Shown one piece after another: positions 11,264-26,699 of a stretch of DNA of 33,231 nt (positions are counted from its first letter, which is position 1; each line of letters begins with the position of its first letter). The stretch is from a virus (taxonomy: Duplodnaviria > Heunggongvirae > Uroviricota > Caudoviricetes). The translations under genes were made by a program, and so were the position numbers. Where the stretch lies: IMG/VR virus record IMGVR_UViG_2874956758_000003; one strand, given 5' to 3'. The notes beneath the pieces were generated by a model that did not search any database, was not told where the DNA came from, and saw nothing but the letters and a program-made list of their open reading frames with translations.

Positions 11264-11365
11264 GGGACACAGCCTAGACTGGCCCCCTGAATCTCCAGAC
11301 AACCAGTATCACTTAAATAAGTGATAGTCTTAATACTAGTTTTTAGACTAGTCATTGGAGAACAG

Positions 11366-11731
11366 ATGATTGATGTCTTAGGGCCGGAGAAACGCAGACG
11401 GCGTACCACACAGGAAAAGATCGCAATTGTTCAGCAGAGCTTTGAACCGGGGATGACGGTCTCCCTCGTTGCCCGGCAACATGGTGTAGCAGCCAGCCAG
11501 TTATTTCTCTGGCGTAAGCAATACCAGGAAGGAAGTCTTACTGCTGTGGCCGCCGGAGAACAGGTTGTTCCTGCCTCTCAACTTGCTGCCGCCATGAAGC
11601 AGATTAAAGAACTCCAGCGCCTGCTCGGCAAGAAAACGATGGAAAATGAACTCCTCAAAGAAGCCGTTGAATATGGACGGGCAAAAAAGTGGATAGCGCA
11701 CGCGCCCTTATTGCCCGGGGATGGGGAGTAA
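11366..11731 (+). CDS. insC: IS2 OrfA (InsC)
   Basis: 121 codons from [47 protein letters not shown] (HTH). Confidence 0.85.
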
Positions 11732-12594
11732 GCTTAGTCAGCCGTTGTCTCCGGGTGTCGCGTGCGCAGTTGCACGTCATTCTCAGACGAACCGATGACT
11801 GGATGGATGGCCGCCGCAGTCGTCACACTGATGATACGGATGTGCTTCTCCGTATACACCATGTTATCGGGGAGCTGCCCACGTATGGTTATCGTCGGGT
11901 ATGGGCGCTGCTTCGCAGACAGGCAGAACTTGATGGTATGCCTGCGATCAATGCCAAACGTGTTTACCGGATCATGCGCCAGAATGCGCTGTTGCTTGAG
12001 CGAAAACCTGCTGTACCGCCATCGAAACGGGCACATACAGGCAGAGTGGCCGTGAAAGAAAGCAATCAGCGATGGTGCTCTGACGGGTTCGAGTTCTGCT
12101 GTGATAACGGAGAGAGACTGCGTGTCACGTTCGCGCTGGACTGCTGTGATCGTGAGGCACTGCACTGGGCGGTGACTACCGGCGGCTTCAACAGTGAAAC
12201 AGTACAGGACGTCATGCTGGGAGCGGTGGAACGCCGCTTCGGCAACGATCTTCCGTCGTCTCCAGTGGAGTGGCTGACGGATAATGGTTCATGCTACCGG
12301 GCTAATGAAACACGCCAGTTCGCCCGGATGTTGGGACTTGAACCGAAGAACACGGCGGTGCGGAGTCCGGAGAGTAACGGAATAGCAGAGAGCTTCGTGA
12401 AAACGATAAAGCGTGACTACATCAGTATCATGCCCAAACCAGACGGGTTAACGGCAGCAAAGAACCTTGCAGAGGCGTTCGAGCATTATAACGAATGGCA
12501 TCCGCATAGTGCGCTGGGTTATCGCTCGCCACGGGAATATCTGCGGCAGCGGGCTTGTAATGGGTTAAGTGATAACAGATGTCTGGAAATATAG
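11689..12594 (+). CDS. insD: IS2 OrfB transposase (InsD)
   Basis: 301-aa ORF with GTG start, overlapping insC by 43 bp; IS3-family DDE motif region ...[11 protein letters not shown]... Confidence 0.9.
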
Positions 12595-12605
12595 GGGCAA
12601 ATCCA

Positions 12606-12634
12606 GGGTGTTGCATTGACAGATTGAATCTACA
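12606..12634 (+). mobile_element. IS30 right-end remnant (29 bp)
   Basis: GGGTGTTGCATTGACAGATTGAATCTACA is identical to the last 29 bp of the IS30 copies at 4256-4284 (reverse) and 29078-29106. Confidence 0.75.
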
Positions 12635-13573
12635 ACAGCGTATTTTGCCCAGGAGTCGCTGAAAAATACGCGTTAGTCGAACAATGGCGACAACAATTCC
12701 CTGTTGAAGCGATGTGTCAGGTATTTGGTGTATCCAGGAGCGGTTATTACAACTGGGTACAGCATGAACCCTCAGACAGAAAACAAAGTGATGAGCGGCT
12801 AAAACTGGAGATTAAGGTGGCACATATCCGCACTCGCGAAACATATGGAACCCGGCGGCTCCAGACGGAGCTGGCAGAGAATGGCATCATCGTTGGTCGT
12901 GACCGACTGGCACGTCTTCGTAAGGAGCTGAGGCTGCACTGTAAGCAGAAACGCAAATTCAGGGCGACCACAAACTCAGACCACAATCTGCCGGTTACGC
13001 CGAATCTGCTGAATCAGAACTTTACGCCCACAGCACCTAATCAGGTCTGGGTCGCAGATATAACGTATGTTGCCACCCGGGAAGGATGGCTGTATCTCGC
13101 CGGCGTCAAAGATGTTTATACGTGCGAAATTGTCGGCTACGCCATGGGAGAGCGCATGACAAAAGAGCTGACAGGTAAAGCCCTGTTTATGGCGCTCAGG
13201 AGCCAGCGCCCACCTGCCGGGCTAATCCACCACACCGTTCGAGGTTCACAGTACTGCGCATACGATTACCGGGTCATACAGGAGCAGTCTGGTCTGAAAA
13301 CATCAATGTCGCGTAAAGGTAACTGTTACGACAACGCTCCGATGGAAAGCTTCTGGGGAACGCTGAAAAATGAGAGCCTGAGCCACTATCGTTTTAATAA
13401 CCGGGATGAAGCCATCTCAGTAATACGGGAATACATTGAGATTTTCTACAATCGTCAGCGTCGTCACTCTCGTCTGGGGAATATCTCCCCGGCAGCCTTC
13501 AGGGAAAAATATCATCAGATGGCTGCTTAAAAAAAGAACAAATGGTAGTGTCCGCTATTGCCAGTACACCTCA
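12635..13573 (+). mobile_element. IS600, 3' portion only (orfA C-terminus + orfB), copy 2
   Basis: Begins at the same IS30/IS600 junction (ACAGCGTATTTTGC...) as the other two copies; ends with the IS600 right terminus ...CCAGTACACCTCA. Confidence 0.8.
12712..13530 (+). CDS. IS600 OrfB transposase, variant with HTVRG in place of HSDRG
   Basis: 272-aa ORF identical to copy 1 except for the DDE-motif segment (HSDRGSQY -> HTVRGSQY). Confidence 0.8.
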   Translation: MCQVFGVSRSGYYNWVQHEPSDRKQSDERLKLEIKVAHIRTRETYGTRRLQTELAENGIIVGRDRLARLRKELRLHCKQKRKFRATTNSDHNLPVTPNLLNQNFTPTAPNQVWVADITYVATREGWLYLAGVKDVYTCEIVGYAMGERMTKELTGKALFMALRSQRPPAGLIHHTVRGSQYCAYDYRVIQEQSGLKTSMSRKGNCYDNAPMESFWGTLKNESLSHYRFNNRDEAISVIREYIEIFYNRQRRHSRLGNISPAAFREKYHQMAA

Positions 13574-18839: not shown

Positions 18840-20297
18840 TTAGGAGCGCCCAAAAAAACCTGAAAACAATATAATAACAGGATAAATTTCAAGGCGACCA
18901 AGAATCATAGCTATGCACATTAAATATTTTGCAATGTCATTAAGCACTCCGAATGACGATGCAGTAGCCCCAAAACCTAATCCCATATTATTAATACATG
19001 CAGCCACTGTTGCAAATGATGTAAGAAAATCATATCCCATACCATTTAACACCAGTATAAAAAACACCGTGAAGAGAGTATAAAGAAAAAAGAAACTCCA
19101 TACAGACCTCATGACACGATCTGTAACTATCTTCCCTCCTACATTTACACTCAACAACGCTCTGGGATGAGAAAGCTGGTTTATCTCGTGTTTGCTTTGT
19201 TTGAAAAGTATAAGAAATCGAAGTGACTTAATTCCACCACAAGTTGAACCTACACATCCCCCAAAGAAACTTGACAACAGCAAAAACACTATCGTGTGCG
19301 TGGGCCAGTTTGCATAATCCTGCGTAGCTAAACCATTATCAGTGAGCATGGAGCTGGCAAGAAAAAACGAATGAATAAAACTTCCAGGCAAGTCATACAT
19401 ACCTATATGCCAGACCTGGAAAGAGGTAACAATGATCACCCCTAAGGCTATTAACAGAAAGAAACGAAGTTCAATATCTCTGATTAAAGGTTTTATCGTT
19501 TTCCTGCTAATAACAATATACCAAAGGGTGAAATTGAAAGCCGATAGCAGGGAAAAAGAACCAGCCACCAGCTCAACCAAATAGTTATTAAAATATCCGA
19601 TACTCTCGCTATGAGTTGAGAAACCACCAAGCGAAACTGTGGATATCCCGTGACAAATAGCATCAAACAAAGGCATTCCTGCAAGTCTATAACAGACAAT
19701 ACAAGCAATACCTAATAAAGAATAAGTTATCCAAAGTGTCCGTGACGTATCGGCCAAGCGGGGAGTAAGTTTGTCATCCTTAAATGGCCCCGGCATTTCT
19801 GACTGATAAAGCTTTGCACCACCAATACCCAATAATGGCAATACAGCAACCGCCAGAACAATAACTCCTAAACCACCTATAAAATTTAACTGTGACCGAT
19901 AGTACAAATATGCCCGAGGTAATGAACTAACATCATCAATTACAGTTGCTCCTGTTGTTGTTATTCCAGAAACCCCTTCAAATAGAGCATCGATAAACGT
20001 TAAATTAAGTTCTGAGTCAATCCATAAAGGGAATGCACTAATAACAGAAAACAAAATCCAAAACATTACAATTATAATAAACCCATCACGGGTACGTAAT
20101 TGAATACCAGATTTCTTAGTTGTATACCACGCTCCGCCACCAATGCCAAAAAATATAACGAAAGTTATAAAGAAAACGAACAGGCTTTTTTCTTTATAAA
20201 ACAATGCTACAACCATTGGTGGCAACATTGAAAGACTATAGAGCCAAACCAGGAACCCACACATATGAGTAACAACTCTTACATGAGATGTATTCAT
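18840..20297 (-). CDS. trkG: TrkG/TrkH-family potassium uptake membrane protein (prophage moron)
   Basis: 485 codons from MNTSHVRVVTHMCGFLVWLYSLSMLPPMVVALFYKE (track ORF starts 6 codons earlier); multi-pass membrane protein with GxG-type pore loops; markedly AT-rich compared with the flanking phage genes. In E. coli K-12 trkG sits in the Rac prophage. Confidence 0.85.
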   Translation of the reverse strand: MNTSHVRVVTHMCGFLVWLYSLSMLPPMVVALFYKEKSLFVFFITFVIFFGIGGGAWYTTKKSGIQLRTRDGFIIIVMFWILFSVISAFPLWIDSELNLTFIDALFEGVSGITTTGATVIDDVSSLPRAYLYYRSQLNFIGGLGVIVLAVAVLPLLGIGGAKLYQSEMPGPFKDDKLTPRLADTSRTLWITYSLLGIACIVCYRLAGMPLFDAICHGISTVSLGGFSTHSESIGYFNNYLVELVAGSFSLLSAFNFTLWYIVISRKTIKPLIRDIELRFFLLIALGVIIVTSFQVWHIGMYDLPGSFIHSFFLASSMLTDNGLATQDYANWPTHTIVFLLLSSFFGGCVGSTCGGIKSLRFLILFKQSKHEINQLSHPRALLSVNVGGKIVTDRVMRSVWSFFFLYTLFTVFFILVLNGMGYDFLTSFATVAACINNMGLGFGATASSFGVLNDIAKYLMCIAMILGRLEIYPVIILFSGFFGRS

Positions 20298-20434
20298 ATC
20301 TAAATATTCTTTCAATTATAACCACCTTGCTGCAACATTATGATTATACTGTATAAAATTTAACTCCTCTAAGATCTTACTTCACTGTTCCTTATGAAAC
20401 AATCATCAAAATGAATCATATTGTAGTTAAGATT

Positions 20435-20722
20435 TTACTTTAAACACTGTTCGGTTATGTATTGCTGAGCACCTTCAAGTTGGGCCTGCATCATTACCAG
20501 TCGTTCCCGGAGGGTGAAATAATCCCGTTCAGCGGTGTCTGCCAATCTGGGGGAGACTGCATTATCCACGCTGGAGGCGATGGTGGCTTCACGCACGGAC
20601 AGACAGACTGCTTTGATGTGCAACCGACGACGACCAGCGGCAACATCATCACGTAGAGCATCATTTTCAGCTTTCGCATCAGCTAACTCCTTCAGGTATT
20701 TTGCATCGAGTGCAGCAACATC
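20435..20722 (-). pseudogene. Rz (i-spanin) C-terminal fragment, separated from its N-terminus by IS2
   Basis: ...LDVAALDAKYLKELADAKAENDALRDDVAAGRRRLHIKAVC...AERDYFTLRERLVMMQAQLEGAQQYITEQC matches lambda Rz C-terminal half (from memory); the reading frame runs into the IS2 left end. Confidence 0.8.
20494..20679 (-). CDS. Rz1 (o-spanin lipoprotein), intact, embedded in the Rz frame
   Basis: 61-aa ORF MRKLKMMLYVMMLPLVVVGCTSKQ... with lipobox LVVVGC and Pro-rich body, closely matching lambda Rz1. Confidence 0.75.
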   Translation of the reverse strand: MRKLKMMLYVMMLPLVVVGCTSKQSVCPCVKPPSPPAWIMQSPPDWQTPLNGIISPSGNDW

Positions 20723-20813
20723 TAGACTGGCCCCCTGAATCTCCAGACAACCAGTATCACTTAAATAAGTGATAGTCTTAATACTAGTTTTTAGACTAGT
20801 CATTGGAGAACAG

Positions 20814-21179
20814 ATGATTGATGTCTTAGGGCCGGAGAAACGCAGACGGCGTACCACACAGGAAAAGATCGCAATTGTTCAGCAGAGCTTTGAACCGGGG
20901 ATGACGGTCTCCCTCGTTGCCCGGCAACATGGTGTAGCAGCCAGCCAGTTATTTCTCTGGCGTAAGCAATACCAGGAAGGAAGTCTTACTGCTGTGGCCG
21001 CCGGAGAACAGGTTGTTCCTGCCTCTCAACTTGCTGCCGCCATGAAGCAGATTAAAGAACTCCAGCGCCTGCTCGGCAAGAAAACGATGGAAAATGAACT
21101 CCTCAAAGAAGCCGTTGAATATGGACGGGCAAAAAAGTGGATAGCGCACGCGCCCTTATTGCCCGGGGATGGGGAGTAA
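20814..21179 (+). CDS. insC: IS2 OrfA (InsC)
   Basis: Identical to copy 1 InsC. Confidence 0.85.
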
Positions 21180-22042
21180 GCTTAGTCAGCCGTTGTCTCC
21201 GGGTGTCGCGTGCGCAGTTGCACGTCATTCTCAGACGAACCGATGACTGGATGGATGGCCGCCGCAGTCGTCACACTGATGATACGGATGTGCTTCTCCG
21301 TATACACCATGTTATCGGAGAGCTGCCCACGTATGGTTATCGTCGGGTATGGGCGCTGCTTCGCAGACAGGCAGAACTTGATGGTATGCCTGCGATCAAT
21401 GCCAAACGTGTTTACCGGATCATGCGCCAGAATGCGCTGTTGCTTGAGCGAAAACCTGCTGTACCGCCATCGAAACGGGCACATACAGGCAGAGTGGCCG
21501 TGAAAGAAAGCAATCAGCGATGGTGCTCTGACGGGTTCGAGTTCTGCTGTGATAACGGAGAGAGACTGCGTGTCACGTTCGCGCTGGACTGCTGTGATCG
21601 TGAGGCACTGCACTGGGCGGTGACTACCGGCGGCTTCAACAGTGAAACAGTACAGGACGTCATGCTGGGAGCGGTGGAACGCCGCTTCGGCAACGATCTT
21701 CCGTCGTCTCCAGTGGAGTGGCTGACGGATAATGGTTCATGCTACCGGGCTAATGAAACACGCCAGTTCGCCCGGATGTTGGGACTTGAACCGAAGAACA
21801 CGGCGGTGCGGAGTCCGGAGAGTAACGGAATAGCAGAGAGCTTCGTGAAAACGATAAAGCGTGACTACATCAGTATCATGCCCAAACCAGACGGGTTAAC
21901 GGCAGCAAAGAACCTTGCAGAGGCGTTCGAGCATTATAACGAATGGCATCCGCATAGTGCGCTGGGTTATCGCTCGCCACGGGAATATCTGCGGCAGCGG
22001 GCTTGTAATGGGTTAAGTGATAACAGATGTCTGGAAATATAG
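21137..22042 (+). CDS. insD: IS2 OrfB transposase (InsD)
   Basis: Identical 301-aa product to copy 1. Confidence 0.9.
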
Positions 22043-22053
22043 GGGCAAATCCA

Positions 22054-22235
22054 ACATCACGCTGGCGTATCTGCATGTCAGTAATGATTGCGGTCGCCTG
22101 GTTGAGTTTTTCCTTCACATTATCGCGCTGCTCTTTGTAGGTAATGGCGTTATCACGGTAATGATTAACAGCCCATGACAGGCAGACGATGATGCAGATA
22201 ACCAGAGCGGAGATAATCGCGGTGACTCTGCTCAT
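22054..22235 (-). pseudogene. Rz (i-spanin) N-terminal fragment
   Basis: [39 protein letters not shown]...DMQIRQRDV matches the lambda Rz N-terminus including the TM segment; continues into the IS2 right end. Confidence 0.8.
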
Positions 22236-22729
22236 TGCTGCCCCCACAAACAGACTTCACGCTCAATCTCACGACGGGTCATCAGCCCTTTCCATTGCTT
22301 ACCGCCAGCATATGTCCAGCGACGTAGCTGGTCACATGCGCCTTTGATATCGCCCTGGTTTATTTTGCGAAGAAGCGTCGATGTTCTGAAATTGCCAGCG
22401 CCCACGTTGTAAACGAACGAGTAAAGAGCGCCGCGCGTTGTTTCCGGTATATCGACTTTGATGTACGGGTTAATTTGTCTGGCGACAGTGGCAAGGTCTT
22501 TATTCAGGAGAGCTTTGCATTCTGCTTCGGTATACGTTTTACCAGGCATGATGTCTTTTCCGGTGTGTCCGTGACATACAGTCCATACACCAATGATATC
22601 TTTGTATGGTATGTAGCTGACACCTTCCAGACCATCGTTACCACCTGGGCCAGTGATTAACACAGATGCTATAGCAACAGCCCCGCCACCAATAGCAACT
22701 GCAACAGCCTTGCGTAATGATGGCGACAT
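22232..22729 (-). CDS. SAR endolysin (phage 21 R-like lysozyme)
   Basis: 165 aa; N-terminal signal-arrest-release segment [27 protein letters not shown] followed by a lysozyme catalytic region (...[12 protein letters not shown]...CHGHTG...), near-identical in pattern to phage 21 R as I recall it. Confidence 0.85.
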
Positions 22730-22944
22730 TATTCACCTCTCGCAGCCTTACGCTTATCTTCTCTTATTTTGAAATACAGATTCGTCAGATAAGTCAGAAG
22801 CCCCAGAAGCAGACTTCCCAGCACACCAATCGCAGCCCACTGTGATGGACTGACCTGATCCAACCACTGCAAAAACCAGTAGCCGGCACTGCCGGCGGAG
22901 GTGCCGTAGGCAATGCCTGTTGATATTTTTTCCATCTGATACAT
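22729..22944 (-). CDS. class II holin / pinholin (phage 21 S-like) with dual-start motif
   Basis: 71 aa [71 protein letters not shown]; two TM segments; Met1/Met4 dual start as in S21 antiholin/holin; 1-nt overlap with R. Confidence 0.85.
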
Positions 22945-22978
22945 ATCCCGCCCCCGACAGACCTGTGCTATCGGAAAG

Positions 22979-23009
22979 AAAAAAGGCCATCAGCAAAACT
23001 CTGATGGCC
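22979..23009 (-). terminator. intrinsic terminator immediately upstream of the holin gene
   Basis: Perfect 9-bp stem GGCCATCAG / CTGATGGCC with a 7-nt loop, followed on the minus strand by U6; 34 nt before the S start codon. Confidence 0.6.
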
Positions 23010-23118
23010 TGAATCACCTTTACCAATATTGTATGAAAAAACACGCACGACTAATTGACAATAATTTTCATTTCCATTAAAAAAGATCGCGTAGCATTCT
23101 TAATTCATGAGGAACTTT

Positions 23119-23186
23119 ACCCGCCAGCAATCTGAGTAGCGAAAGCTGTTCATCCCCAATGTTTTTGCTGGCGGGTCCTTTTTTCT
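23119..23186 (+). other. 12-bp perfect inverted repeat with 34-bp spacer followed by T6 (plus-strand terminator-like or structured element)
   Basis: ACCCGCCAGCAA ... TTGCTGGCGGGT then CCTTTTTT; lies in the non-coding stretch between the tRNA array and S. Confidence 0.4.
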
Positions 23187-23621
23187 ACGGTCCTCCTCCC
23201 CGGAGGGGGCATTTCATTATTTTTCTAATCGTTACTGGTGAGAAGGCGGAAGAAAAAGCCAGTTCTTCGCCCCTAAATAACAGCATGATTCCAGTCCATG
23301 CAAAATCTGACTTCCAGCTCACACATACCGAACACTGTACAAAAAACCGCCGGCCAAGGCAGTTAAGAGTGTGTTCCCGGGGGGGCTTAGAATATTTTGT
23401 AAGTTGTCCGAAGAGATATTTACAACACCAGAATGATGCATTATCAGTCCCCTGCCAGAGATTCACTACGTAACCTGACCGACAATGCACCATTCTGGTG
23501 CTGAAAAAAGAGCACTGGAACTGCAACAAAACAACATCGCAGAACAGGAGATGGTAAGGAGTCAGACATTCCCACACAATATTGTGTCAGTGCAAATAAC
23601 AACCTTCGTCTCAAATCTCGC

Positions 23622-23696
<75 letters not shown>

Positions 23697-23699
23697 ATA

Positions 23700-23774
<75 letters not shown>

Positions 23775-23776
23775 CG

Positions 23777-23853
23777 CTGGCCCACCACCGAGGACTCGAA
23801 CCTCGCACCGTCAACTTAGAAGGTTGATGCTCTATCCGGATGAGCTAGTGGTG
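23777..23853 (-). tRNA. tRNA-Arg (anticodon UCU)
   Basis: 77 nt; anticodon stem-loop TCAAC-CTTCTAA-GTTGA, T-arm CGAGGTTCGAGTCCTCG, acceptor stem CCACCAC/GTGGTGG, encoded CCA. The 5' C is unusual, so ends are approximate. Confidence 0.6.
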
Positions 23854-23854
23854 G

Positions 23855-23931
23855 TTGGTGGCCCTTGCTGGACTTGAACCAGCGACCTGGCGATTATGAG
23901 TCGCTCGCTCTGACCAACTGAGCTAAAGGGC
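23855..23931 (-). tRNA. tRNA-Ile2 (anticodon CAU, ileX-like; formally could be Met)
   Basis: 77 nt GGCCCTTTAGCTCAGTTGGTCAGAGCGAGCGACTCATAATCGCCAGGTCGCTGGTTCAAGTCCAGCAAGGGCCACCA; resembles E. coli ileX (from memory), anticodon loop CTCATAA. Confidence 0.7.
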
Positions 23932-24021
23932 CGGAGGCAGAATAATAACCATATGTCATCACATCTGCAAACTCATCTGACCACCAGCACGTTTAACGTC
24001 CTGTGCCGTTTTTCAGGTATA

Positions 24022-24045
24022 AAAAAACCCGCATAAAGCGGGCTC
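24022..24045 (-). terminator. intrinsic terminator ~80 bp downstream of the Q-like gene (tR'-like)
   Basis: Minus strand reads AGCCCGC-UUUAU-GCGGG followed by U7. Confidence 0.6.
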
Positions 24046-24121
24046 TTTCAAATGTCCATGTCTGCTATTCGCCTCGCGGCACAGCTTTGCGAAGCGTACA
24101 AGAATTGAAGCAGTTTTTACG

Positions 24122-24676
24122 TCAAAAAGCAATAACTTTTTTCTCTATACCAAAAGCCATAACCATTGGTTTGTACAAAATAAATTCTGCCACCTTTAGC
24201 CAATGCTCAATGCGTCTTTCACAGGTTCTTAAACTCCATTTCGGGTGTGCATCATTCAGCAGTTCAGCCATTTTGCGTTTGGTCATCCCCCGCCCCTCAT
24301 ACCGTTGCCGAAGGACGCTAATCAATCCTGGATGCTCTGCCAGCACCTCACTTATGACCCGATCAATACATAACGCCTCTGCATCAGTACAATGCGCCAG
24401 CCAGCTCTTTTGCTTACCGTTAATCATATCCCGCAAAAAAGCCTCAAGTTCAGACTTGTTCAGACCTGCTTTTTTCATCCTCCGGAGCGCCTCGTTAATT
24501 GCCGTTTTTGTCAGCTTTTTAGAGGTCAACATCAGGTTAAACATATTCCCCGTCTTACCGCCACCAATATACGACCAGCGCCCCCACATACGTAGTTTTC
24601 CCTGAATCCAGACACTTTCCAGCGTGGTGAGACGAAGGTGTTCTCCGCTTTTTCCTGTATTCGTTGGGTAAATCAT
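24122..24676 (-). CDS. putative late-gene antiterminator Q-like protein
   Basis: 184 codons from ATG 24676 (RBS AAGGAGGG; ATGA overlap with the upstream gene's stop). Contains an LRMWGRW segment of the kind found in Q-type antiterminators, and sits between nin-region-like genes and the terminator/tRNA/lysis block. The track ORF extends 40 codons further upstream. Confidence 0.45.
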   Translation of the reverse strand: MIYPTNTGKSGEHLRLTTLESVWIQGKLRMWGRWSYIGGGKTGNMFNLMLTSKKLTKTAINEALRRMKKAGLNKSELEAFLRDMINGKQKSWLAHCTDAEALCIDRVISEVLAEHPGLISVLRQRYEGRGMTKRKMAELLNDAHPKWSLRTCERRIEHWLKVAEFILYKPMVMAFGIEKKVIAF

Positions 24677-24963
24677 AAATATCCCTCCTTTCTCCAGATT
24701 TCTTGTGTGCGAAAAACACCTTCTGCATGCATCAGGCGTAATTCTTCTTTGGTGTAATCGCTGGTTTTTACCCGCCCGTCGATTAAATCGTGGCACGAGC
24801 TACAGGCAATCGCTGCCTGCATATCGTGTGGCTTTATCGCTGTTCCGCACGTTCCCGCCAGTCGGTAATGCGCCAGCACAGACGTTTCCGGATCGTGATT
24901 GCAGTAGCCAGGAATTCTGACGGTGCACATCTGCCCCCGCGCCACTTTACGTAAATCCACCAT
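24673..24963 (-). CDS. YbcO-like phage protein (DUF1364, Cys-rich putative nuclease)
   Basis: 96 aa MVDLRKVARGQMCTVRIPGYCNHDPETSVLAHYRLAGTCGTAIKPHDMQAAIACSSCHD..., matching the DLRK.ARG..C.VRIPG.CN..PETSVLAH pattern of DLP12 YbcO as I recall it. Confidence 0.6.
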   Translation of the reverse strand: MVDLRKVARGQMCTVRIPGYCNHDPETSVLAHYRLAGTCGTAIKPHDMQAAIACSSCHDLIDGRVKTSDYTKEELRLMHAEGVFRTQEIWRKEGYL

Positions 24964-25562
24964 TACGCAAACTCCAGCAGCTGCGCGGCCACATTTTCGA
25001 CTTGTTCCGGAGAGGAAAATTTACGGAACAGGATCCAGTTCCACAGCACATTCAGAACAGATTTATAAACCTGCTGAAACTCGGTTTCGTCCATGTTCGC
25101 AAATGCGATAGATTTTGCCCTGCGCCCACGACTACCATCAGGATAAATATGCTCGGTGTAAAATCCTGCCTGAATGGTTACCCACTCGCGGAAAGCCTCA
25201 AACGACTTTAGCAATGCCGTATTCCGGGTTCTGCATGTCGCAACGGTATTAAGGTATTGCTCTGCGGCATCACTCAGGGCTGGAGTGTGTTCCCGACCTA
25301 CTGATTCGCACAGGTAATCAACGAAGCCTGATACCAGTTTTCGTTCGCGAGGCGTGATCGCCCCACCGCTCGGAGTCCAGTAATCGAATCCCAGTTGCAG
25401 GAGTTTGAAAAAACGCTTGTGAAATGCGTAGTTACGCACACGCTTAAAGTCTGCGTGTATCCACTCACCTGTTTTGATTTGATGCAAAAAATCGCAACTC
25501 TCCGGCGTCGCCGGAAGAAGTAATCCGGAAGAGGTTTGTTTGACCAGTTGTATATGCGCCAT
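24963..25562 (-). CDS. phage protein, DUF1367-like (nin-region protein)
   Basis: 199 aa MAHIQLVKQTSSGLLLPATPESCDFLHQIKTGEWIHADFKRVRNYAFHKRFFKLLQLGFDYW...; position upstream of the ybcO-like gene with 1-nt overlap. Confidence 0.4.
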   Translation of the reverse strand: MAHIQLVKQTSSGLLLPATPESCDFLHQIKTGEWIHADFKRVRNYAFHKRFFKLLQLGFDYWTPSGGAITPRERKLVSGFVDYLCESVGREHTPALSDAAEQYLNTVATCRTRNTALLKSFEAFREWVTIQAGFYTEHIYPDGSRGRRAKSIAFANMDETEFQQVYKSVLNVLWNWILFRKFSSPEQVENVAAQLLEFA

Positions 25563-25633
25563 CGTAGTTCTCCGCTGGCGCAGTAGAATGGGTGTTCAGC
25601 CCGTTATGTAGTATACCAGAATTAATGCCAATA

Positions 25634-25885
25634 CTAACAGGATGCTCTGACTCGCAATTCATCCAGCAGTTTATCATTTCCCATAATGTCACTTACCCTC
25701 ATCGGTAAAAAAATTGCCTTTCGACCATTACGATACATTATTGACTTTGGGGTTTCAGGGAAGTAATCCATTTCGACTATAACTGACAGGTCATCACGAC
25801 GTATGACTGCGTATTTGCTACTAAATAGTTTCTTTATTTTTTCCACGATGCCTCTAGGTTTATAAGTACAAACGGTTATATCCAC
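25634..25885 (-). CDS. small phage protein (83 aa), Rem-like by size and position
   Basis: AT-rich 83-aa ORF between hok and the DUF1367-like gene, the position held by rem in the Qin prophage of E. coli K-12; no motif recognised. Confidence 0.3.
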   Translation of the reverse strand: MDITVCTYKPRGIVEKIKKLFSSKYAVIRRDDLSVIVEMDYFPETPKSIMYRNGRKAIFLPMRVSDIMGNDKLLDELRVRASC

Positions 25886-26030
25886 ATAGAGACAAAAATA
25901 TTAATTTGAAAAATATTTATTTCACGTCGTATATTTGATTATTTAATGTGCAAGTACAATGACTTTTATTTTTTGTTGTGTATATAATCAAATATATGGT
26001 TATTTTTCACCCTGCGTATTCAGCGCGCAA

Positions 26031-26053
26031 CAAAAAACCCGCCGAAACGGGTT
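26031..26053 (-). terminator. intrinsic terminator at the 3' end of the hok transcript
   Basis: Minus strand AACCCG-UUUCGG-CGGGUU followed by UUUUGUUG; ~75 nt downstream of the hok stop. A longer GC hairpin (GGGCGGGG...CCCCGCCC, 26093-26120) lies between it and the CDS. Confidence 0.5.
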
Positions 26054-26128
26054 AAGTGCGGGTGCGTTAAGGATGCCTGACACATCAGAGGTGGGCGGGG
26101 ATGGGATCAGCTCCCCGCCCGGTCACTC

Positions 26129-26284
26129 TTACTTCCTGGATTCGTAGTCTACGAAGACAGCGACCTCCGTCTGGCCGGTTCGGATTCGTACCTCACAGAG
26201 GTCTTTCCTCGTTACCAGTGCCGTCACTATGACGGTTAAACAGATGACGATCAGGGCGACTAACATCGCCTTTTGCTGCTTCAT
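26129..26284 (-). CDS. hok: Hok/Gef-family type I toxin (HokD/RelF-like, 51 aa)
   Basis: MKQQKAMLVALIVICLTVIVTALVTRKDLCEVRIRTGQTEVAVFVDYESRK: single TM helix plus the conserved RKDLCEVRIRTGQTEVAVF core of Hok toxins. An in-frame upstream ATG (26341) extends the ORF to 70 aa. Confidence 0.85.
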   Translation of the reverse strand: MKQQKAMLVALIVICLTVIVTALVTRKDLCEVRIRTGQTEVAVFVDYESRK

Positions 26285-26626
26285 AGCCTGCTTCTCCTTG
26301 CCTTCCGGCACGTAAGAGGCTAACCTACGTGTGCAAGTCATAGATATGGCCTCAGATTAATGTTAAGCGTCCTGCAAGACGCGTAATGTTAACTGGGGCT
26401 TTTCTCTGTCTGCCTTACAGTGGCATGCCCGAGGCAGACAGCCTCAAGCACCCGCAGCCATTCTACTTAACCTTTTAGCTGTTTCCAACATTTTATCTTT
26501 GCACCAAAATTCGCTCGCAACCTATCGATAAATCTAGAATTTTTAAATTAATAGATTGCAATAACATGCGATGTTCTCTTTAACCAAAATCAGGTCACAC
26601 AAAAACCATTCTACAATCCTTGTTGA

Positions 26627-26645
26627 ATAATTATCTGATAATTGT
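26627..26645 (+). promoter_or_regulatory. near-palindromic candidate operator upstream of the XRE-HTH gene
   Basis: ATAATTATC-T-GATAATTGT (one mismatch between half-sites), ~55 bp upstream of ATG 26700, overlapping -35/-10-like hexamers (TTGAAT ... TTTAAT). Confidence 0.4.
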
Positions 26646-26699
26646 TTAATGTATCTTCAATGGTAGTAAAAGACTACCTCCCTTGATTAGGAGGTCACA

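Follow-up and report, generated by a model that had tools for sequence, protein, structure and literature searches.

A predicted, apparently intact hok/mok/sok type I toxin-antitoxin cassette in a degraded lambdoid prophage

The 33,231-nucleotide stretch of Caudoviricetes DNA analyzed here (hereafter, the window) carries on its minus strand a 51-aa reading frame that resembles the Hok toxins. This raises the question of whether the frame belongs to a complete type I toxin-antitoxin cassette, with a regulated messenger RNA and an antisense Sok gene of its own, or is a toxin gene that has lost its antitoxin or its activity. The earlier note on this DNA had interpreted it as a hok-type type I locus of a lambdoid prophage without relBE, and that interpretation is supported. 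From sequence comparison and folding, we propose, with a probability of roughly 0.9, that positions 26030-26490 form a type I hok/mok/sok cassette that is self-contained and apparently intact, falls within the hokW/hokD subgroup and sits, as a 'moron', within the nin region of a lambdoid prophage that has itself degraded. No disrupted element was found (Table 1): the locus retains, in conserved form, both promoters, tac, ucb, the mok Shine-Dalgarno (SD) sequence and AUG, the hok SD and reading frame, the 3' stem-loop, fbi and the terminator.

Table 1. Positions of the cassette elements and of the 5' neighboring gene in the window
Feature	Position	Strand	Details and basis
Predicted hok/mok mRNA promoter	26460..26488	-	-35 TTGGAA (26488-26483), 17-nt spacer, -10 TAGAAT (26465-26460)
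Full-length hok (mok-hok) mRNA, ~424 nt	26030..26453	-	Rfam leader match, fold, shared homology
tac element	26442..26453	-	GGGUGCUUGAGG; mRNA 5' end, pairs with fbi; MFE fold
5' leader hairpin	26406..26441	-	GCUGUCUGCCUC...AAGGCAGACAGAG; MFE fold; first stem of the Rfam model
ucb / anti-SD box	26393..26403	-	AAAAGCCCCAG; MFE helix 4; pairs with mok SD in the closed form
mok Shine-Dalgarno	26350..26353	-	GAGG, 8 nt 5' of mok AUG; direct reading
mok reading frame, 70 aa	26129..26341	-	Shares hok's frame and stop codon; ORF list
hok Shine-Dalgarno	26299-26294	-	AAGGAG, 5' of hok ORF
hok toxin gene, 51 aa	26129..26284	-	MKQQKAMLVALIVICLTVIVTALVTRKDLCEVRIRTGQTEVAVFVDYESRK; Pfam PF01848
Candidate TadA A-to-I editing site (Tyr to Cys)	26143..26146	-	TACG motif at the Tyr47 codon
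G+C-rich 3' stem-loop	26093..26120	-	GGGCGGGG...CCCCGCCC; MFE fold
fbi element	26060..26081	-	CCUUAACGCACCC (26072-26060) pairs with tac; adjacent GUCAGGCAU pairs with mok start region
Intrinsic terminator of hok mRNA	26030..26053	-	AACCCGTTTCGGCGGGTT (26053..26036), then TTTTTG; terminator scan
Predicted Sok promoter	26298..26326	+	-35 TTGCCT (26298-26303), 17-nt spacer, -10 TAACCT (26321-26326)
Predicted Sok RNA, ~71-75 nt	26333..26407	+	Transferred from annotated sokW of 933W (AF125520)
Sok 5' single-stranded tail, 15 nt	26333-26347	+	GCAAGUCAUAGAUAU; antisense to mok AUG region
Sok terminator hairpin	26348-26400	+	Followed by UUUUCUCU; folding; U tract 26400-26407
HTH gene, divergent 5' neighbor of hok	26700-27095	+	M78/ImmA gene beyond

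Toxin gene and predicted closed messenger RNA

The Hok/Gef core that had been recognized by eye in the 51-aa frame is present, and so is the in-frame upstream extension that had been regarded as possibly mok-like. The resulting 70-aa product matched all 42 positions of the Pfam HOK_GEF (PF01848) profile (E = 6.3e-23; 80.6 bits, cut-off 22 bits) and PHROG 251, 'MokW-like host killing', at 9e-32. The Pfam match points to the traits of the family, namely a short toxin (about 50 aa) that bears the conserved Hok/Gef core and an N-terminal transmembrane helix. The NCBIfam matches were all sub-threshold, the Hok subfamily scoring 55.5 bits under its 73-bit cut-off. The likeness to HokD noted earlier stands, in that 45 of 51 residues are identical to K-12 HokD, but the toxin is nearer to HokW of 933W and Sakai prophage 5 (Sp5), with 49 of 51 identical residues and the differences I9V and E50R; a copy in Shigella flexneri SFBU1023 is identical at 50 of 51. 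The identical Hok protein is encoded in at least 10 public contigs, and those listed are all NCBI assemblies. The mok frame is co-linear in the alignment with the annotated mokW of phage 933W.

To compare the RNA elements, homologous loci were gathered from three sources, namely species-representative genomes, phage and E. coli records, and contigs encoding the identical protein, and 28 distinct transcripts, from Escherichia, Kluyvera, Photorhabdus, Pantoea, Erwinia and Kalamiella and including hokC-type loci, were aligned from tac to fbi. The context GAGGC of the mok SD was invariant in all 28 loci, and its GAGG motif has been proven functional in R1 (PMC9841398). The sequence TACGAA around the candidate editing site was likewise invariant (28/28), and editing at the equivalent position has been reported for hokC, hokD and hokE (PMC5630033). 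In the ucb box, AAGCCC was invariant and the adjacent fourth C nearly so. Upstream, the predicted hok promoter matches the consensus at 9 of 12 positions in the promoter scan and would start transcription at G26453, 7 nt past the -10 hexamer; TAGAAT and the GGGTGC that follows it were invariant in a four-locus alignment.

Next, we folded the 424-nt transcript. Its minimum free energy (MFE) was -179.2 kcal/mol, compared with -139.1 ± 6.3 for shuffled sequences (z = -6.4). In the MFE fold, nucleotides 1-12 (tac) are paired with the CCUUAACGCACCC portion of fbi, the mok SD GAGG with the conserved CCCC box of ucb, and the mok AUG region with the stretch just 5' of fbi. This predicted fold is the closed, untranslatable architecture described for the R1 hok mRNA (PMC9841398). 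The leader hairpin that had been read as GTCTGCC...GGCAGAC forms in it at 26441-26406 on the minus strand, as does the G+C-rich 3' stem-loop at its own position, and the intrinsic terminator was recovered by the scan. By analogy with R1 (PMC9841398), the 3' stem-loop probably guards the 3' end of the processed active mRNA; it occurs in all loci (helix 15), with the alignment there disturbed by indels.

The window's fold was then projected onto the 28-locus alignment. Standard pairs occupied 87.7% of the cells, compared with 36-43% when the partners were slid by 1-3 columns, a control that is biased toward the fold because the window's sequence, which supplied the structure, is itself in the alignment. 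Pairs changed on both sides numbered 39, against 25.8 ± 2.7 in shuffled alignments, and none of 500 shuffles reached 39. The tac/fbi helix (helix 1), whose pairing the earlier note had proposed to look for by folding, was maintained at 98.5% over the 28 loci and shows a compensatory switch from U-A to C-G with a U-G intermediate; the leader hairpin (helix 2) was paired at 88.6%, with four pairs carrying two-sided changes. Anchored alignment and pair counting took the place of an RNAduplex test of tac against the 3' untranslated regions (UTRs), which was noisy and often chose the G-rich 3' stem-loop over fbi (z from 0 to -6). The conserved leader fold, the mok frame and the tac/fbi pairing, whose absence would have spoken for an orphan or inactive gene, are all found here, as is the Sok gene predicted below.

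We also folded the 3'-trimmed RNA without fbi. The mok AUG region was freed from its long-range pairing, and the MFE structure contained a local tac hairpin resembling the known metastable structure instead of tac/ucb pairing. By inspection, tac GGG(U)GCUU could pair with the conserved ucb AAGCCCC. For the processed mRNA, ucb is put forward as a possible partner of tac, a role modeled on R1 (PMC9841398). In the presumed refolding step, tac/ucb pairing would free the mok SD.

An intact sequence is no guarantee of activity, since some chromosomal hok loci are reported to be inactive: according to work summarized in a preprint (bioRxiv 10.1101/2025.08.07.668861), the hokA, hokB and hokC loci of E. 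coli are unable to mediate post-segregational killing. The window's cassette might, in the same way, be intact in sequence yet functionally silent, a passenger in decay, like the chromosomal hok loci of K-12, that makes too little active mRNA or toxin. Consistent with such decay, the lambda-like host prophage is riddled with insertion sequences, the adjacent ImmA gene has a nonsense mutation, and the window's fbi differs from that of most relatives by one C-to-T change that turns a tac/fbi G-C pair into G-U. However, the G-U pair keeps tac and fbi paired, every element of the cassette is present and conserved, and the transcript is 100% identical over its whole length in two other public assemblies and over the 347 nt contained in the contig of a third. 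In addition, the hokW system, whose toxin is 96% identical, is active (PMC8621323). We therefore regard a silent cassette as unlikely.

Predicted antisense Sok gene

A scan of the whole window with Rfam gave a match to RF01794, 'sok antitoxin (CssrC)', at 26279-26453 with 111.7 bits and E = 7e-25 over model positions 1-157 of 157. Alignment to the hok/sok covariance models, which had been proposed as a check, thus yielded nearly twice the gathering score of 59. The match lies on the hok-coding strand, where the model begins at 26453 and extends from tac as far as the SD and AUG of hok; the plus strand scored 15 bits only. RF01794, though named 'sok', recognizes the hok-sense leader, whose complement contains Sok. 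Therefore, this match alone is no proof of an antisense gene. The family also bears the Shigella sRNA name 'CssrC', on which a literature search returned nothing relevant.

Next, we located the Sok signals, using homology to the annotated sokW together with folding and alignment. sokW of 933W aligns to 26333-26403 on the plus strand, while mokW and hokW align exactly to the two reading frames. An antisense gene had been expected on the plus strand around 26340-26420; the predicted gene, co-linear with sokW, maps from 26333 to about 26405 by homology and fold. Its 5' end, G26333, lies 7 nt past the -10 hexamer, and both promoter hexamers are invariant among the window, 933W, CFSAN029787 and pPE4. 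Sequence and homology place this promoter within the mok-hok overlap. The homologous sokW promoter has been inactivated experimentally in Sp5, where HokW is toxic and sokW, expressed from its own promoter, neutralizes it in a manner that depends partly on RNase III and Hfq (PMC8621323).

The predicted Sok RNA folds at -27.6 kcal/mol (z = -5.2), compared with -18.9 kcal/mol for the same interval on the hok strand. RNAalifold recovered the Sok stem from the 28 loci with four compensatory pairs. Four pairs of the stem are G-U in at least 21 of the 28 loci and in up to all 28 (U25-G69, for example), and these correspond to A-C mismatches on the hok strand. The strand specificity of these pairs is thus evidence for selection on the antisense RNA itself.

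These results bear on the possibility that the toxin gene is an orphan without an antitoxin, as in the state of K-12 hokD. A generic scan called no plus-strand promoter or terminator within 26290-26410, as would be expected for an orphan, but the promoter was missed because its hexamers match the sigma-70 consensus at just 7 of 12 positions, and the terminator because its stem has a bulge and a mismatch. Against an orphan, the promoter, 5' end and hairpin line up with those of sokW, which is annotated and experimentally supported, folding finds the hairpin followed by a U tract, and the hairpin is conserved with its strand-specific pairs. Moreover, all of the sequence 5' of 26298 that is missing from the K-12-type truncation is present here. 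An orphan toxin gene is accordingly very improbable.

Relatives, neighbors and distribution

By sequence, the window's cassette belongs within the hokW-sokW subgroup of the Stx2 phage 933W and Sp5, a type already studied in Shiga-toxin phages. The hokW-mokW-sokW cassette of these lambdoid prophages (AF125520; PMC8621323) has the same element order and spacing, an in-frame 70-aa mok and about 89-90% nucleotide identity over about 405-415 nt, and is prophage-borne like that of the window. The -35 and -10 hexamers of sokW are identical, and its stem-loop differs from that of the window at 4 of 53 positions. In contrast, the window and 933W disagree at 8 of 15 positions in the predicted Sok recognition tail and mok start region, and cross-neutralization between the two is therefore not assured. 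The sequences are also divergent past fbi, the window's terminator sequence being absent from 933W in the alignment. The 933W cassette lies at the end of the late region, whereas that of the window lies in the nin region beside HTH/ImmA.

[quoted passage not shown] The mok-hok coupling and the free 5' tail and terminator hairpin of Sok described for R1 (PMC9841398) also have counterparts here, and the presumed mechanism matches. R1, which was compared through the literature, is a plasmid rather than a prophage, and its sequence is distant, with HokW only 44% identical to R1 Hok (PMC8621323). The Escherichia hokC (gef)/mokC/sokC-type loci have the same tac, ucb, mok SD, in-frame mok, fbi and overall fold at about 75% nucleotide identity, but their Sok hairpin is 18 nt shorter, and the mok region and 3' UTR differ. 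In some hokC-type copies, an insertion removes fbi.

We also compared the window with hokD (relF) of the K-12 Qin prophage, where relBE precedes the toxin gene. The 3' UTR of that locus, with fbi and terminator, is homologous to that of the window (89.5% identity over 26298-26033). The K-12-type homology begins only at 26298, 14 nt 5' of the hok AUG (and spans query positions 263-532 in the complete-genome search), and the K-12-type gene therefore has no tac, mok start or Sok 5' end; its own promoter, the leader and the Sok -10 are likewise missing. There relE abuts hokD, and in one K-12-type locus RelB (79 aa) and RelE (95 aa) are encoded directly 5' of it, whereas the window has the full leader and no relBE. 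A tblastn search of the 33-kb window with RelB and RelE from this locus gave chance matches only, the best with E = 4.4. A relBE-hokD (relBEF) arrangement was thus rejected for the window, which has the full leader and Sok and encodes neither protein. The contrast that the earlier note drew with K-12 is correct as regards the missing relBE. It does not make the window peculiar, however, because the K-12 arrangement is the truncated exception and the absence of relBE is the rule for complete cassettes.

Divergent from hok and 5' of it, the plus strand carries the HTH and M78/ImmA genes and insertion sequences, as well as DnaT/DUF1376-type and lambda-P-type replication genes. On the minus strand past hok are an 83-aa phage ORF (PHROG 1813), DUF1367, YbcO and a DUF1133/Q-like antiterminator, then four tRNAs, a holin and a lysozyme, and, farther on, trkG. 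The divergent HTH/ImmA pair named as the 5' neighbor does adjoin the cassette, but the association is not fixed: among loci with the identical Hok, the 5' neighbor is HTH/ImmA in some and an ORF6N or a CCDC90-like gene in others. Because these neighbors vary and the position in 933W is different, the cassette behaves as an autonomous moron and not as a partner of HTH/ImmA. Its own promoter and terminator also speak for autonomy. A three-part system in which HTH/ImmA, for instance as a repressor and protease module, controls hok transcription from the intergenic region they share is hardly credible and was rejected, for although E. coli CFSAN029787 and two assemblies with the identical cassette have the same adjacency, other genes take this place beside the identical toxin, and 933W has its cassette elsewhere in the genome. 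Moreover, the conserved block stops at 26471, just 5' of the hok -10 and leaving the hok -35 outside, and in the window ImmA has its premature stop and the HTH gene is frameshifted while hok is untouched.

The cassette is widely distributed. Matches occurred in 4712 of 5426 complete E. coli genomes (~87%), at a median of two and up to nine places per genome, and the homology block common to thousands of E. coli copies spans 26034-26471. Enrichment of hok genes in prophages has been reported (bioRxiv 10.1101/2025.08.07.668861). Among the complete RefSeq E. coli genomes, none exceeded 94% identity over the cassette, and the copies with a 100% identical transcript come from other public assemblies (L006 and L010 over the whole length; L011 over its 347 nt); the window itself is 99.9% identical to GCA_031665835.1 over 12.2 kb. 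Its many insertion sequences, together with the Rfam names CssrB and CssrC, may point to a Shigella-like host. The kind of cassette is already known and its exact sequence is already public, so that nothing here is novel. The significance is mainly one of annotation, in that coordinates are provided for every regulatory element, the Sok gene included. Two mildly useful by-products are the finding that the 'sok' Rfam model matches the hok-sense leader and the concentration of divergence in the Sok recognition tail.

Presumed regulation and the Sok recognition tail

The mechanism proposed for the window's copy follows from its homology to R1 hok/sok and Sp5 hokW-sokW. The minus strand would give a stable mRNA of about 424 nt, closed by the pairing of tac at the 5' end with fbi at the 3' end, and this closed form would hide the mok SD and AUG, so that neither ribosomes nor Sok could act. 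Slow 3' trimming would remove fbi and let the RNA refold, after which mok could be translated, and the overlapping hok would be translated only via mok translation. The plus strand would constitutively yield the short, unstable Sok RNA, whose free 5' tail would pair with the mok start region, block mok and hence hok, and trigger cleavage by RNase III. If Sok synthesis stopped, because the element was lost, an infecting phage shut off transcription or the prophage was induced, the stored hok mRNA would be translated, and the 51-aa Hok peptide would depolarize the inner membrane.

The likely benefit to the element would be that the prophage DNA is retained, that other phages are excluded or that lysis comes earlier upon induction, as has been shown for hokW-sokW. 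The host prophage of the window is probably non-inducible; the assistance to lysis demonstrated for hokW may not extend to it.

Finally, among hokD/W-type loci, the Sok tail and mok start differ at 3-9 of 15 positions, whereas the adjacent Sok stem-loop differs at 0-4 of 53. We tentatively raise the possibility, which we consider less probable than its opposite, that the tail is a specificity code insulating co-resident prophage hok/sok copies from each other's antitoxins. If this speculation is true, then each prophage would stay individually 'addictive', and the window's tail, GCAAGUCAUAGAUAU, would define a specificity group of its own. Alternatively, the divergence may simply mean that the first mok codons are under relaxed constraint. 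Three copies that reside together in one Shigella flexneri genome have three different tails and almost identical stems.

Rfam models and variable positions of the cassette

The Rfam model RF01794, labelled 'sok antitoxin (CssrC)', scored 111.7 bits on the hok-coding strand (26279-26453, minus), over the stretch from tac, the 5' end of the hok mRNA, to the hok AUG. The opposite, antisense strand gave the same model only 15 bits (26395-26573, plus). Despite its 'sok' name, RF01794 is in effect a model of the hok leader, and annotation of Sok on the strand of the hit is therefore unwarranted. The window also has a match to a second Rfam model, CssrB (see the table).

Within the cassette, variation was greatest in the predicted 5' tail of Sok, at the mok start region (window 26333-26347, plus). 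We compared this tail between the window and the homologous hok loci L013-L025 and L014/L017/L019, and found 3-9 differences in 15 positions among hokD/W-type loci, against 0-4 in 53 for the neighbouring stem-loop. Three hok copies that share the genome of Shigella flexneri SFBU1023 carried three different tails. The divergence may reflect antitoxin specificity, or the first mok codons may simply be under relaxed constraint.

The Tyr47 codon of Hok is TAC, placed inside a TACG motif (26143-26146, minus), and TACGAA was invariant in all 28 loci of the transcript alignment. Cys30 is hard-coded in the window. A pattern of A-to-I editing by TadA has been reported for hokC, hokD and hokE (PMC5630033); at the sequence level, the Tyr47 TACG and the hard-coded Cys30 together match this pattern, which makes Tyr47 a candidate TadA editing site.

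Gene order and decay around hok

The HTH/ImmA cassette beside hok is decaying, and hok itself is untouched. We took as references L006, a public assembly locus that is 99.9% identical, and E. coli CFSAN029787, which has the same HTH/ImmA-hok adjacency. With the 1-nt deletion in the window, the HTH protein is 131 aa long instead of 118, and the nonsense change splits M78/ImmA into fragments of 31 and 127 aa.

Coordinates of annotated features in the window
Feature	Position	Strand	Remark
CssrB ('Chromosome-encoded Shigella sRNA B'), Rfam RF02799	1286-1468	-	144.6 bits (gathering score 76); full model length
Insertion-sequence stretch	3360-5414
Insertion-sequence stretch	11321-13530
Insertion-sequence stretch	20769-22042
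tRNA genes, four in tandem	23625-23932	-	between Q-like antiterminator and holin
HTH gene	26700-27095	+	1-nt deletion in A run at 27043
M78/ImmA gene	27070-27627	+	C-to-T at 27163, early Gln to stop
Insertion-sequence stretch	27947-30002
Insertion-sequence stretch	32326-33231

The HTH/ImmA genes and the replication genes (DnaT/DUF1376 type, lambda-P type and DUF1627) occupy 26700-32401 on the plus strand, and hok and the nin, Q and lysis genes point away from them on the minus strand (18840-26453), so that both groups diverge from the intergenic region 26480-26700. In lambda, by contrast, the genes follow a single rightward order. In CFSAN029787 the inversion is confined to HTH/ImmA. The position of the tRNA genes is shared with Stx-type lambdoid phages, and CFSAN029787 carries Ile, Arg, Thr and Gly tRNAs in the equivalent place.

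The density of insertion sequences is very high. A 272-aa rve (IS3-family) ORF and a pair of ORFs of 136 and 301 aa are each present in three copies, and a frameshifted IS30-like element (HTH_38 + rve) adjoins ImmA. The prophage is probably defective.

Copies of hok in other records

The cassette was also found, at 90.7% identity, in L003 (PP818812.1, 'Actinobacillus phage vB_Apl-pPE4'), whose recorded host is Actinobacillus pleuropneumoniae. Its downstream flank is the same as that of the window and its nin region resembles those of E. coli phages; the assignment to an Actinobacillus host looks doubtful. Near-identical hok fragments (L031, L033 and L063) occur in assemblies that bear the labels Acinetobacter idrijaensis, Xanthomonas pisi and gut MAG. 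The contigs that carry them are very short, between 275 nt and 3 kb, and the fragments are probably enterobacterial contamination rather than true occurrences.

Two E. coli loci, L004 and L026, have a broken stem-loop in the hok 3' UTR (GGGGAG..ATCCCATAAGCGCTAACTTAAGGG...) and a displaced fbi, the 3' pairing partner of tac. This state resembles the inactivation by insertion that has been described in chromosomal hok loci of K-12. An IS4-like element is annotated adjacent to the broken stem-loop in L004.
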